Assembly (NCBI GenBank): GCA_947448205.1
Contig: CANFNL010000001.1
Span: 217-64,216, forward strand
From: Bacteriovoracaceae bacterium
Lineage (GTDB): Bacteria; Bdellovibrionota; Bacteriovoracia; Bacteriovoracales; Bacteriovoracaceae
Length of the DNA stretch: 64,000 nucleotides
Direction of reading: 5' to 3'
Below, in pieces: positions 28,904 through 39,840 of this stretch; the first letter of the stretch is position 1; each line of letters opens with the position of its first letter. The translations under genes were made by a program, and so were the position numbers. The notes under the pieces are model-generated. The model saw only the letters and a program-made list of their open reading frames with translations, ran no database searches and had not been told where the DNA came from.

Positions 28904-29254
28904 TTATGTTTTAGTGTTTTTCTTATCACGCATTTTTGTCGTTCCATGGAAAATAACGCCTTCTTCAACAATTAAACTAGGCGTTGTAATGATTCCTTCA
29001 AATCTTGCCGGTTTTAGTATTTCGACGCGTGAGCTTGCTTTTATATTTCCTTTTACAGAACCTGCGATGATAATAATATTAGCATTAATGTCAGCGTTTA
29101 TGATTGCCCCTTCAGAAATCACTACTGTGTCATTAGAAAATACACTTCCATTAACAATACCTGCTATTCTGGCAGTACCATTAAAAGACAAATTTCCTTC
29201 GAACTTACAACCTTCTTCTATGATGGCTGAAATTTCACCGCGGCTTCTTTCCAT
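28904..29254 (-). CDS. bactofilin (polymer-forming cytoskeletal protein)
   Basis: IIEEGCKFEGNL...GSVKGNI...LIVEEGVIFHG beta-helix repeats. Confidence 0.93.
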   Translation of the reverse strand: MERSRGEISAIIEEGCKFEGNLSFNGTARIAGIVNGSVFSNDTVVISEGAIINADINANIIIIAGSVKGNIKASSRVEILKPARFEGIITTPSLIVEEGVIFHGTTKMRDKKNTKT

Positions 29255-29273: not shown

Positions 29274-29295
29274 AAGTGGTCCTATGGGACCACTT
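29274..29295. repeat. palindrome AAGTGGTCCTATGGGACCACTT; sixth copy of the mnmE 16-mer and/or parB terminator
   Basis: 9-bp perfect arms; core TGGTCCTATGGGACCA (29277-29292) is 15/16 identical to TGGTCCTATAGGACCA; on the minus strand it runs into a short T tract. Confidence 0.75.
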
Positions 29296-29335: not shown

Positions 29336-30265
29336 TTACTTTGATAATAAAAATTCATAAATATCGTTAAATTCTGCCTCATTGCTAAATTTAAGTACAA
29401 TTTGTCCTGAACCATTTTTTCCAGAATTTATTCCATAGTGAAATCCAGTTTTTTGTTCTAGTGACTTTCTGAATTGATCAAGTTTTTCATCAAAGAATGG
29501 ATTTTTCCTTGTCACTTTTTCCTTCAGAGGCTTTTTCGCCTTAATACCACTTTCCAACTCACGAACTGACCAACTATTAGCTACAGTTAAATTAGCGAGT
29601 CTAATAGCTTCTTCGCGCTCTTTTACGGCGGCTAATATTTTAGCGTGACCAAATGAAAGTGCTTCTTTTTGAAGTAGATCAATTACTGGGCGAGGCAGAT
29701 TAAGAATTCTTAAAAAATTTGCCACTGTAGATCTTTCTTTTCCGAGTTTTTTAGCAACATCTTCTTGAGTTAGCTTATACTCATTCATCAATTGATAATA
29801 AGCCAAAGCTTCTTCTACACAATTTAAATCAGAACGTTGAACGTTTTCAATTATTGACATGATCATCTTTTCACGATCAGTAGCATTTTTCACCACGACA
29901 GGTACTTGTTCAAGTCCAGCTTTTTTTGCTGCCCTTAAGCGTCTTTCACCTGCGACAAGTTCAAATTGTCCGTTTTCAATTTTAGCAACAATTAATGGCT
30001 GAATGATTCCATTTTCTTTTATTGATTCTGCTAATTCCTCTAAATCTTTTTCTTTAAAAATTTTCCTTGGCTGATTAGGATTTGTTTTTATTGATCCTAC
30101 GTCTACCATTAGGGGTGAATTCTCTATTCTAACTTCAACTTCTCTTACAGATGATTCTTCTTCTGTCGAAAAATGATTATTGTATGTTTGATTAACAACT
30201 GACTGAGGAGTCGACTCTTGAAGTAATGAAGCGATTCCTTTTCCTAGTGCAATTTTTTTAGCCAT
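29336..30265 (-). CDS. parB: chromosome partitioning protein ParB
   Basis: ALGKG N-terminus, NPNQPRK, GERRLRA CTPase motif, ENVQRSDL, HTH. Confidence 0.97.
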   Translation of the reverse strand: MAKKIALGKGIASLLQESTPQSVVNQTYNNHFSTEEESSVREVEVRIENSPLMVDVGSIKTNPNQPRKIFKEKDLEELAESIKENGIIQPLIVAKIENGQFELVAGERRLRAAKKAGLEQVPVVVKNATDREKMIMSIIENVQRSDLNCVEEALAYYQLMNEYKLTQEDVAKKLGKERSTVANFLRILNLPRPVIDLLQKEALSFGHAKILAAVKEREEAIRLANLTVANSWSVRELESGIKAKKPLKEKVTRKNPFFDEKLDQFRKSLEQKTGFHYGINSGKNGSGQIVLKFSNEAEFNDIYEFLLSK

Positions 30266-30295
30266 GACAACTCCGCAAGCTTAATGCTCGAATTA

Positions 30296-31198
30296 TTAGT
30301 TTCCATCAAAGTTAATATTTTCTAGCGATGGAATAATATCCATAATTAGTTCCTCTGGAACTTTTTCCTCGGCGAGTGCATCTGGTATTGCTGGCGCTCC
30401 CAATGACCCATTTTGCTTACTACTTCCTTTAAATCTTTCTTTAAGAATAAGTTCCTTAGCTAAAGCTAAATACGCTTCACTGCCCTTGGATTCAATATCG
30501 TAAAGAATAATTGGTTTTCCAAACGAAGGACATTCAGCAAGCTTCACATTTCTTGGAATAATAGTACTAAAAACTAAATCACCAAAATGATTTTTAATTT
30601 CATTGGCTACTTGCTTATGTAATCCCGAGCGAGAATCAAACATTGTTAATAAAATTCCATCTAATTCCAAATCTGGATTAAGTGATGACTTTATTAATTT
30701 TACCGTATTTAAAAGCTGAGCAAGCCCTTCCATCGCAAGATATTCTGTCTGCATTGGTACGATATATGAGTTGGCTGCATTTAGTGCATTTACAGTCAAG
30801 AGTCCCAACGATGGAGGACAATCAATGATGATATAATCATATTCTTTTTCTACTGACTTAAAGGCGGCTTTTAATTTTGATTCGCGAGCAAACAAACTCA
30901 CTAACTCTAACTCTGCTCCGACTAAATTATTATCAGAGGGACAAATGTCAAAACATGGTAACTCTGAATGGTAAATCGCCTCTTTAAGAGTAATTTGACC
31001 TATAAGTGCATGATATATATTTTTTTGAGCAAAAGTTTCTTTTGATAATCCAATACTAATACTTCCATTGCCTTGAGGATCAAGGTCTATTAGTAGAGTT
31101 TTTTTCTCGGCTACCGATAGACACGCCGCCAAATTTACTGACGAAGTCGTCTTTCCCACTCCACCTTTTTGGTTCATCATTGCTATAATTTTAGCCAT
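30296..31198 (-). CDS. parA: chromosome partitioning ATPase ParA/Soj
   Basis: NQKGGVGKTT, DLDPQGN, DCPPSLG. Confidence 0.97.
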   Translation of the reverse strand: MAKIIAMMNQKGGVGKTTSSVNLAACLSVAEKKTLLIDLDPQGNGSISIGLSKETFAQKNIYHALIGQITLKEAIYHSELPCFDICPSDNNLVGAELELVSLFARESKLKAAFKSVEKEYDYIIIDCPPSLGLLTVNALNAANSYIVPMQTEYLAMEGLAQLLNTVKLIKSSLNPDLELDGILLTMFDSRSGLHKQVANEIKNHFGDLVFSTIIPRNVKLAECPSFGKPIILYDIESKGSEAYLALAKELILKERFKGSSKQNGSLGAPAIPDALAEEKVPEELIMDIIPSLENINFDGN

Positions 31199-31248: not shown

Positions 31249-31887
31249 TTAAAGTAACTCAGAAAATTTAATAATTTTTTCTGTTTGCATTGTTCCACGT
31301 AGAACTTTCCTATTTTTAAAACCTAGTAAAACCCTCCCTTCAGTTCCAGGAACGTCATAAGACTTTTCCTCAATTAATTCCCAATTGCTCTCAATCATTT
31401 CTTCAATATCCTCTAGTTCATAAAAATTTGGCCCTTTATAGAAAAAAACAAATAACGTTTTATTTGAGCGAAGCAGTGGTAGATAATCTGAAACTTTTCC
31501 AACACCCTTAAAGGTAATCACAACGTCTTGATCAAAATCTATTGTTTCCAATCTTTGATGCTTTAAAAAAACATTAGTTAATCCAAGAGCTGCAGCAATT
31601 TTTTGAACCACTTGTGCTTTTTTAGCCCGCGCCTCAAATCCCATAAATGTTTTATCTGGATTAGTAAAAGCTAGAGGCAGAATAGGAAAACCTCCACCAA
31701 AACCGACATCAACCAATAACTTTGTCTGTTCTAAAGCATTTCTAAAAACTTTGCTTTCTTTCTGAGGTAAAACAGAATCAATAATTTGCTTTTGATAAAA
31801 TTCTTCCGGCGTTGTGATTCTTGTTAAATTAATACCAGCGAATTCACCAGTTAGAAGAGTTAAATATTTTTGGCTAAATTCTTTCAT
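31249..31887 (-). CDS. rsmG: 16S rRNA m7G527 methyltransferase RsmG (GidB), divergent
   Basis: INLTRI, DVGFGGGFPILPLA, YKG; located between mnmG and parA. Confidence 0.9.
   Translation of the reverse strand: MKEFSQKYLTLLTGEFAGINLTRITTPEEFYQKQIIDSVLPQKESKVFRNALEQTKLLVDVGFGGGFPILPLAFTNPDKTFMGFEARAKKAQVVQKIAAALGLTNVFLKHQRLETIDFDQDVVITFKGVGKVSDYLPLLRSNKTLFVFFYKGPNFYELEDIEEMIESNWELIEEKSYDVPGTEGRVLLGFKNRKVLRGTMQTEKIIKFSELL
31291..31306. promoter_or_regulatory. parS site (inside the rsmG 3' end)
   Basis: TGTTCCACGTAGAACT, 14/16 match to TGTTCCACGTGGAACA, about 90 bp upstream of parA. Confidence 0.8.
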
Positions 31888-33743: not shown

Positions 33744-33759
33744 TGTTCCACGTAGAACA
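33744..33759. promoter_or_regulatory. parS site (immediately upstream of mnmG)
   Basis: TGTTCCACGTAGAACA, 15/16 match to TGTTCCACGTGGAACA. Confidence 0.88.
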
Positions 33760-33804: not shown

Positions 33805-35298
33805 CTACTTCCCAATACAAAAATTTTCAAATATGGAATTAAGTACATCATCGGGAGAGAGTATCCCGATTAACTCACTCAGGTATTGAGAAAAAATATT
33901 CAACTCAGATGAAACAATTGCAATATCATTTATATTATTGATTTTATTGATAAAATCCATTTTTTTTAAATATAAAGTATTTATGCATTGCCGATGTCTA
34001 TCTAGTAAAATCGGACTGTTAGATGTCAATGCCTTAAACTTTGAAGATAAATGATTCTTTACAAGTGGTTCTATAGGACCAGAGCATTTTTCCAATTTTG
34101 GTTCTGTAGGGGCAGATTGTGAATGTGGTCCTATAGGTCCATATTTCGAAAATGGTTCTATAGGACCAAGAAGAAAATGGCTCGCTGAAATTGGTCCTAT
34201 AGAACCATTTTCTAAACTAGCAGAGGCAATAAAATTTGCATGAATTTTTGAGAGATCTAAGAGTGAAGTTGCCTTATAAAAATCATCAATGTCTGAGTGA
34301 GAAATAAATAAAATATCAAACTCAACTCCACTTAATTTATCTAAATAATCCGAATTCGTTTCAAAAGGGTTGATAATTAAAATTTTAAAAAAAGCACGAT
34401 TTAAAATTTCAAATGCACGATGAATTCCGATGTTTTCAATAAAGTCATTTGATTCTCTAATGCCAGCTGTATCAACCAATTTATAATTGGTCCCATCAAT
34501 ATGAATAAGTTCGGTAATGTAATCACGAGTAGTCCCAGGGATATTAGAAACTATAGACCGATTCTGTTTAACCAAAAGATTAAAAAGAGAGCTCTTTCCG
34601 GCGTTAGTTTGACCAACAAGCACAACTTCTGGAGAAAGAAGTGAAGAAACATTTCCCTCCGACCGAGCATGAAGGGAGTCCAAAATTTTCGAAAAATGTG
34701 AAAAAGAATTATCAAAAAGTATTTTGGACTGCTCTTCGCCTACATCATCAGAGAAATCAATAGAAATCTCAACTGCTGCTTTAACTTTTAAAAAACTATC
34801 ATAAAGTGATAAATACTGAGTGTGCAATTCACCCTGTAAAATATCGAGACCTTGAGTTAACATTAAATTTGAATTGGCATTCAAAAGCATGTCTAAACCC
34901 TCAACCTGCGAAAGTGATAATTTTTTGTTTTTTAATGCACGATAAGTGAACTCTCCAGGATGTGCGGCTCTAAAACCAGCACTATTAATAAAAAGATCTA
35001 AAATCCTTTGAATGTTAAGCTGATTTCCATGTACTGAGAGCTCAAGGACGTTTTCAGATGTGTAACTTTTATCTTTTGGAAAAAATACCAAAAGGCCATT
35101 ATCAAAAATTTGGTGATTAGAAATTATATTAGTTAAATGTGAAAAACGCGGCTTAACTTTTTTTAGTGCAAAAGAAAAATAAGGCTGAAGGGACAATAAA
35201 TCAGAGAAACCAGAAAGACGTATCACTGCAATAGCAGTATTGGATAATGTACCAGTACTGCATGCAATGATAGGACAATCGTCAGGATAAAAAATCAT
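33805..35298 (-). CDS. mnmE: tRNA modification GTPase MnmE (TrmE) with an internal repeat insertion
   Basis: IRLSG, GEFTYRA, GQTNAGKSSLFN, PGTTRD, DTAGIR, terminal FCIGK. Confidence 0.96.
   Translation of the reverse strand: MIFYPDDCPIIACSTGTLSNTAIAVIRLSGFSDLLSLQPYFSFALKKVKPRFSHLTNIISNHQIFDNGLLVFFPKDKSYTSENVLELSVHGNQLNIQRILDLFINSAGFRAAHPGEFTYRALKNKKLSLSQVEGLDMLLNANSNLMLTQGLDILQGELHTQYLSLYDSFLKVKAAVEISIDFSDDVGEEQSKILFDNSFSHFSKILDSLHARSEGNVSSLLSPEVVLVGQTNAGKSSLFNLLVKQNRSIVSNIPGTTRDYITELIHIDGTNYKLVDTAGIRESNDFIENIGIHRAFEILNRAFFKILIINPFETNSDYLDKLSGVEFDILFISHSDIDDFYKATSLLDLSKIHANFIASASLENGSIGPISASHFLLGPIEPFSKYGPIGPHSQSAPTEPKLEKCSGPIEPLVKNHLSSKFKALTSNSPILLDRHRQCINTLYLKKMDFINKINNINDIAIVSSELNIFSQYLSELIGILSPDDVLNSIFENFCIGK
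34066..34212. repeat. array of five 16-bp imperfect palindromes TGGT(T/C)CTATAG(G/A)ACCA inside mnmE
   Basis: Copies start at 34066, 34099 (degenerate), 34126, 34153 and 34192; start-to-start spacings 33, 27, 27 and 39 nt. Confidence 0.92.
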
Positions 35299-39297: not shown

Positions 39298-39840
39298 AAT
39301 GTGGATAACTTTTCGTAAAAAGTGAAAAGTTATCCACGGCCTTTCCACAAATAATTAACAGACTTATCCACATAATTTAAAGAAATTCACAATTTCTAAC
39401 CTATTTTATTATAAATAGTTAATTTATAACTTCGAAGAATATGTTATCAACAATAAATTATTAACATTGTTGATAGCTGTGTGAATAAAAGTTAAAAAAG
39501 AAGCAAAAAAATATAATAGAAAATTTTTAAAAAAAAACCGTGGAAAGGCCGTGAATAAAGTGTTGAGAAATAAAAATTTAACAGGTCTTTAAAATGAATA
39601 TGCGATTAGAATTGATAAATACAAAAAAGTTATTAGAAATAATCAATATAAACAAAAAACTTAAGTTAATGAAATTTATAACCTTTTATTTCTTTTCCAC
39701 TTATCCACACTATAATAATAAAAGTATTAATAATAATAAATAATATATAACAAAAACAAAATTCTAAATTAACCCAGCTTATGGACCCAGTGAATCTTGA
39801 TTTCGAATACCGATAAAGTTACAAAATAATGAAAATATAA
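39298..39840. other. replication origin oriC
   Basis: dnaA-dnaN intergenic region. Perfect DnaA boxes at 39300-39308 (TGTGGATAA), 39364-39372 and 39701-39709 (TTATCCACA). Near-matches at 39330, 39341, 39444, 39458, 39468, 39480, 39539, 39550 and 39693. AT-rich ATA/TAA triplet run after the last box; gene orientation diverges around this region. Confidence 0.93.

Follow-up and report, generated by a model that had tools for sequence, protein, structure and literature searches.

A family-wide, origin-restricted 16-bp DNA site in the Bacteriovoracaceae, a candidate centromere for a second ParA-ParB pair

The 16-bp palindrome repeated inside the mnmE gene of a Bacteriovoracaceae bacterium is a family-wide, origin-restricted DNA site. 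Judged from sequence, it is most likely a new type of centromere for a second ParA-ParB pair, encoded elsewhere in the same genome beside a complete canonical ParABS system.

The array and its setting at the origin

The window, i.e. the whole stretch of DNA analysed, comprises 64,000 nucleotides of an assembly (2.63 Mb, 203 contigs, 89% complete) that belongs to the genus Bacteriovorax. It is a replication origin region, with the genes dnaA-dnaN-recF-gyrB, DnaA boxes and a turn in GC skew. The features relevant here are the following (sites are given without strand).

28904..29254, minus strand, bactofilin gene, adjoining site copy 6
29277..29292, site copy 6, TGGTCCTATGGGACCA, in the gap that follows the parB stop and precedes the bactofilin start
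29336-30265, minus strand, canonical parB1, encoding ParB1 with the parS-reading residues R173 and G201
30296-31198, minus strand, canonical parA1 (parA1-parB1 block 29336..31198)
31291..31306, second canonical parS, within the 3' end of rsmG
33744..33759, canonical parS, TGTTCCACGTAGAACA, where mnmE meets mnmG, putative target of ParB1
33805-35298, minus strand, mnmE, host gene of the array
34066..34081, site copy 1, TGGTTCTATAGGACCA, MnmE residues 407-411, GPIEP
34099..34114, site copy 2, TGGTTCTGTAGGGGCA, APTEP, mixed half-site types
34126..34141, site copy 3, TGGTCCTATAGGTCCA, GPIGP
34153..34168, site copy 4, TGGTTCTATAGGACCA, GPIEP
34192..34207, site copy 5, TGGTCCTATAGAACCA, MnmE residues 365-369, GSIGP
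39300..39709, DnaA-box cluster, likely oriC, in the dnaA-dnaN gap, with the GC-skew turn nearby

The original prediction described five 16-mers starting at 34066, 34099, 34126, 34153 and 34192 (spacings 33, 27, 27 and 39), in frame within mnmE, some 300 bp from parS and 5 kb from oriC. Every position was confirmed; the pentapeptides GSIGP, GPIEP, GPIGP, APTEP and GPIEP are read at MnmE residues 365-411, a stretch of 47 codons late in the G-domain that appears from the sequence to follow a G5-like motif, and the measured distances are 307 bp to the canonical parS at 33744-33759 and 5.1 kb to the start of the DnaA-box cluster at 39300. The prediction was right about the five copies but overlooked the sixth, at 29277, whose place is conserved in relatives and holds up to five copies there. 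It had also treated all copies as variants of one perfect palindrome. Copy 5 is copies 1 and 4 in reverse orientation; copy 2 has four mismatches to the perfect palindrome, but only one to the family model, in which two half-site types are permitted.

A degenerate pattern derived from the copies matches the window 12 times on both strands against 1.07 expected (maximum of 5 in 100 shuffles), and in the whole assembly the only matches with at most one mismatch to TGGTCCTATAGGACCA are four of the array copies and copy 6. The array is not an assembly artefact, because a contig from sequencing run X3, a separate study, spans 33926-34294 with zero differences; one contig from run X5 carries G34106A in copy 2, which gives the consensus core. 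Elsewhere in the assembly, unrelated genes contain or adjoin single sites with one mismatch (G000:C9:34781, C44:3160 and C52:11940, G000 being the source genome).

A site maintained as DNA near the origin

The site is also carried by relatives. The exact pattern TGGTYCYATRGRACCA is present in 196 of 211 Bacteriovoracaceae genomes, against 3 of 213 for a reversed control, and in a sample of the phylum the motif occurs in 71/78 genomes of the family versus 2/223 outside it; it is absent from the single sister-family genome examined (n=1), which has one ParB. Within the genus, the same place in mnmE holds an array in all 23 relatives from which mnmE was recovered (24 searched), with unrelated spacers and 4 to 11 copies in complete genes. 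A two-copy pattern run against 185,579 species genomes retrieved 87 stretches (78 MnmE, 6 bactofilin, 2 MnmG, 1 without match). Among the 80 of these that were listed most are labelled as Bacteriovoracaceae or its genera, and one, labelled Flavobacteriaceae, has the same array in an MnmE 40% identical to that of the source genome.

Each half-site reads TGGTYCTA or TGCCCCYA, positions 3-4 switching as a pair, and with the second type allowed, sites are found in all five genomes chosen as motif-poor or rearranged. Combinations of two TGCCCC-type halves are rare across the family (4/370 sites). The arrays of one genus (loci L141 of G222 and L098 of G225) reach ten copies, nearly all of them with mixed half-sites.

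Codon usage indicates that selection targets the DNA, as originally proposed from the flipped copy, the varying peptide and the constant ATA codon. From the 78 mnmE loci, 74 with complete genes gave 286 motif pentapeptides, which are not independent events because copies share descent and duplication, and which we compared with the remainder of the same genes. Ile is ATA in 257/261 cases versus 22% elsewhere, and the other codons are frozen too: GGT at one Gly (261/262 versus 33%), GGA at the other (121/121 versus 29%), GAA for Glu (164/165 versus 61%) and CCA for Pro (272/286 versus 31%), while the base preceding the pentapeptide is T in 272/286 versus 42%. Aligned orthologs vary in copy number with their synonymous positions frozen, the pattern that the prediction had named as its check.

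The site is also found in other genes. Host genes were surveyed in 20-kb origin regions, covering 57 of 59 located genomes (weighted to motif-poor ones) and three same-genus genomes. The 367 sites counted at 59 origin loci, a figure that excludes the sister-family genome, comprise 195 in the array loop of mnmE, 46 elsewhere in mnmE, 57 that are intergenic by first-ATG gene calls, 23 in yidC, 16 in mnmG, 14 in parB, 5 in dnaA and 11 in others. Coding sites occur in all three frames, with 275/307 sharing one. Spacing within arrays is mostly 24-33 bp, which would leave space for one dimer per site. Complete mnmE reading frames vary in length between 455 and 602 codons, and the array probably expanded in this gene since the loop late in the G-domain accepts insertions.

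The origin bias expected by the original prediction is pronounced. In 15 complete or near-complete genomes with 82 exact sites, 70 lie less than 10 kb from dnaA, 78 less than 20 kb and 81 less than 60 kb; the single outlier is 1.19 Mb away, and the reversed pattern gives 2 matches in the same genomes. The rearranged genome G065 has mnmG 0.2 Mb from dnaA and parB1 on another contig, and all three of its sites, together with one canonical parS, have remained at mnmE with dnaA. The genes displaced from its origin region are mnmG-rsmG and parB1, on contigs C16 (L224, L091) and C12 (L238). Frozen codons, family-wide presence and origin bias support the proposal that the array is a DNA-level, origin-proximal platform, putatively for a protein.

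The second ParA-ParB pair as candidate reader

Two ParB_N genes are present in the source genome. The second belongs to an operon on contig C34.

C34:16867-16891, split site in the parA2 promoter region, both half-sites correctly oriented and about one helical turn apart
C34:16962-18653, parA2-parB2 operon, among ordinary chromosomal genes
C34:16962-17735, parA2, 257 aa, AAA_31 match and KGGVGKT motif, directly upstream of parB2
C34:17772-18653, parB2, 293 aa, PF02195 (ParB_N) match and GERR motif

ParB2 is 31% identical to ParB1, and ParA2 29% identical to ParA1. SMC is also encoded in the genome, as is a third ParA-like ATPase (G000:C48:12298-12822), on a contig in which no ParB_N gene was found. 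ParB2 was recovered from 203/211 family genomes, the eight without it being 81-92% complete. At E<=1e-22 it was detected in 78/78 family genomes and in 0/223 from other families, in the same sample that gave 71/78 and 2/223 for the motif, a co-distribution that amounts to one clade, so that any family-specific protein would show it. A ParA with intact KGGVGKT was recovered at 49/49 parB2 loci and is 70-77% identical across genera. In 6 complete genomes the distance between the operon and dnaA is 0.29-0.63 Mb (four origin positions being approximate), and no intact site was found within 1.5 kb of parB2 at 49 loci or within 5 kb at 20.

The residues that would read the DNA differ between ParB1 and ParB2. 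According to the text of Jalal 2020 (PMC7383237), specificity is set by positions 173, 179, 184 and 201, and R173 is invariant in parS-specific variants. ParB1 has R173/G201 in 48/48 sequences parsed of 56; ParB2, numbered by alignment to Noc, has K173, R178 and Y201 in 85/85, a near-invariant helix-turn-helix and no variation in its DNA-reading residues. ParB1 therefore explains the canonical parS, and ParB2 should read another sequence. The fold predicted for ParB2 (mean pLDDT 72.8) has structural matches in Noc, ParB and KorB that extend over both domains. The ParA-binding motif LG[RK]GL, named in the text of PMC12704722, is absent from ParB2, which has instead a conserved, basic N-terminus (F5, R8, K11, R14).

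Another line of evidence comes from the parA2 promoter, where the order is TGGTCCCA, 9 bp, TAGGGGCA, 8 bp and TTGACA; a sigma-70 consensus scan called no plus-strand promoter before parA2. Among 1957 upstream regions of the source genome (both divergent genes counted), the parA2 intergenic region is the only one to hold a pair with no more than one mismatch. From 85 loci we recovered 78 parA2 upstream regions: the split pair (spacer 9-11 bp) is present in 25/78, which include 23/23 regions from the own genus and a single one from each of two other genera, and an exact half-site in 48/78. Counted by genus, which are not independent units, 10/27 have an exact half-site against a 3% background (shuffle mean 0.95, maximum 6, n=300), and 17/27 have none before parA2. 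Position relative to the promoter differs among genera, and the half-sites remain beside the parA2 promoter as the divergent neighbour gene changes. Half-site types are mixed in 13/25 pairs and fully complementary in 1/25; since the halves switch type independently, they do not form a terminator stem, although a T-run lies behind them. A looser split-site pattern, searched in 152 genomes, was near control level outside the own genus and was dropped as evidence. Plasmid par operons commonly self-regulate, and some ParBs bind half-sites without wide spreading, as related in the text of PMC7022226. ParA2 has no N-terminal DNA-binding domain, so ParB2 is the likely binder at this promoter.

Taken on these sequence features, ParB2 is very probably the reader of the 16-bp site. 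The palindrome would then be the centromere (parS2) of the second pair, probably with a role in partition or origin positioning together with ParA2; segregation as the task of loaded ParB2 is suggested by analogy. A ParB2 dimer would bind the intact site with one helix-turn-helix per half, close on CTP and slide off, repeated loading coating the origin region. ParB2 would stimulate ParA2, and the origin would be moved or held alongside ParA1-ParB1-parS1 and SMC. At the promoter, where the halves are one helical turn wider apart, ParB2 might bind without clamp closure and control its own operon, the weakest step of the scheme. Copies may accumulate in mnmE through the tolerance of the GTPase loop, the peptide being incidental.

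ParB2 forms an isolated clade: in a protein library clustered at 50%, 17 proteins were found at E<=1e-30, followed by a gap. Plasmid searches gave distant ParBs only (33% identity over 62% for the top-listed match), and none of the plasmid, phage or metagenome loci joins a ParB2 relative to the motif; the four loci of the metagenome scan all encode full-length ParB2 and lack the motif. A viral scan with ParB2 gave one unrelated ParB-like gene, also lacking it. Conversely, 82 viral matches to a single motif include collagen-like repeats and have no ParB2 domain nearby, and a viral contig of 191 kb contains numerous near-matches scattered inside its own repeats (L161, L201, L202, L207, L215, L216), with no ParB2 domain in the stretches examined.

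Eight short singletons of 111-158 aa on metagenome contigs (P0144, P0154, P0167, P0221, P0224, P0226, P0248, P0255) contain the DNA-binding domain of ParB2, its recognition residues almost unchanged, and no CTPase domain. As phage-borne proteins, if they are such, they might compete for the site; no such standalone protein was found in 238 genomes of the order, in the viral scan or in phage records. One genome of the order with two ParB2 matches has two equal full-length copies. A 244-aa ParB2 relative that looks GC-rich (P0127) has a similar helix-turn-helix and a degenerate CTPase region.

Known systems and competing explanations

Features shared with chromosomal ParABS are a 16-bp inverted repeat clustered in several copies near oriC, often within genes, a ParB, putatively cognate, that combines a CTPase fold with a helix-turn-helix (PF02195, GERR, predicted model), and a ParA ATPase upstream in the same operon. 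The pair differs in lacking the LG[RK]GL motif, in K173/Y201, in an operon 0.3-0.6 Mb from the sites and in coexisting with a complete canonical system at the same origin; the motif differs in core and arms and in its two interchangeable half-site types. In plasmid type I systems (F SopAB-sopC) and chromosome-2 systems we again find tandem 16-bp sites, private specificity and a probably self-regulating operon; a possible likeness of the half-site to the F plasmid sopC arm is given no weight. Here, however, parA2-parB2 are fixed single-copy chromosomal core genes with no close plasmid relative, ParA2 lacks a DNA-binding domain at its N-terminus, and the array lies within a coding gene on the main chromosome. 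For F, PMC3177203 gives 12 repeats, all of which contain an inverted repeat of 16 bp. Bdellovibrio bacteriovorus shares a parA-parB-bactofilin locus, two parS sites and filamentous predatory growth (texts of PMC7186360 and PMC10547168), whereas its extra ParAs are orphans without a ParB neighbour (PMC7186360) and ParA2 is paired with ParB2.

Searches of the literature on par systems of Bacteriovorax, Halobacteriovorax, Bacteriovoracaceae and Bdellovibrio, covering main articles and few subscription journals, found no description of the pair; nor was a paper on the motif itself found with the same limited journal coverage. In the accessible text of PMC11789641 (Marinov 2025) a Hi-C pattern is ascribed to parABS, and 'palindrom' and 'mnmE' were not found. 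The main text of PMC12704722, a survey of ParB folds, does not name Bacteriovoracaceae, although its datasets may list the parAB pair, and the accessible text of PMC10547168 treats two parS and does not mention the family.

The strongest competitor, in our estimation still unlikely, is that ParB2 loads at the sites without segregating the chromosome, and positions other structures relative to the origin (the division site or polar/invasion machinery) or acts as a Noc-like membrane tether or KorB-like regulator. Its best sequence and structure matches are Noc proteins, Noc likewise being an additional chromosomal ParB-family protein with a private 16-bp palindrome; a second segregation motor seems redundant beside complete ParABS and SMC, the conserved N-terminus is not the canonical ParA-binding motif, and one site immediately precedes the bactofilin gene. 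NBS sites are distributed round most of the chromosome, whereas the present motif is confined to the origin. The Noc set Q173/K179/K184/R201 is replaced in ParB2 by K, S/C, K/R and Y, so that QKKR is missing, and the site is unlike NBS, TATTTCCC-GGGAAATA (text of PMC7383237). Noc is moreover an orphan without ParA, as stated in the text of PMC12704722, and ParB2 has the conserved ParA2 directly upstream at every locus parsed for it.

Less probable again, and in our view improbable, is an unrelated, family-specific regulator acting like a cell-cycle master regulator, with the origin sites and the parA2-parB2 promoter alike among its targets. A second perfect split site, the sole other one genome-wide, does lie between two divergent genes (G000:C73:11926-11952, L291, 11-bp spacer), one for a dCMP deaminase and the other a conserved ORF of 148 aa without Pfam match. 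This pair is complete in just 2/29 same-genus genomes, with an exact half-site in 11, and half-sites are not enriched before genes generally (62/1957, 3.2%, versus 3.0% of tiles). The majority of intact sites are within coding sequence. Such a regulator would also leave ParB2 siteless: when 69 parAB2 loci were searched for dyads, no dyad was shared by more than 17.

That ordinary ParB1 reads the motif as a second target is very improbable. The motif equals the local parS form at 10/16 positions, with equal length and symmetry, and lies amid parS sites; against this, it differs at 6/16 positions from the TGTTYCACGTGRAACA consensus and has its own fixed core, ParB1 retains R173/G201, most loci still have canonical parS alongside the motif, and the motif is nearly absent from other families of the phylum. 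The chromosomal consensus given in the text of PMC7383237 is TGTTTCAC-GTGAAACA.

Elements of the REP or Rickettsia palindromic type have many genome-dispersed copies and a conserved stem-loop. A selfish repeat of this kind, which the original prediction had offered as its alternative, a hairpin in RNA or a peptide repeat under selection would fit the in-frame insertion of variable copy number in a conserved gene and the shared frame of most coding sites, yet these readings are largely refuted, and have next to no probability, given origin confinement, halves that vary independently, the scarcity of perfect palindromes (41/370) and the joining of non-complementary half-site types in 146/370, which is evidence against a hairpin, the mixed codons of collagen-like viral GPIGP repeats (both strands counted), and several genomes with no copies in the mnmE loop and copies elsewhere near the origin.

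Reading the palindrome as the centromere of ParA2-ParB2 leads to a wider picture that we put forward only tentatively: a single chromosome whose one origin is served by two orthogonal ParABS machines, a new recognition code, a centromere set in the reading frames of core genes, and intact 16-mers that load clamps with split half-sites serving as a non-loading operator. If true, ParB2 would bring a new natural specificity to the chromosomal ParB family, together with a defined site, candidate residues open to testing in E. coli, and an orthogonal ParB/parS pair for locus labelling. The split operator would be a natural test of half-site spacing as what decides between static binding and clamp loading. 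The odd GPIEP-type insertions in the MnmE, YidC, ParB and DnaA proteins of the family would be DNA signals and not protein features, and the question would become why predators that split a filament into many progeny have two origin-handling systems.
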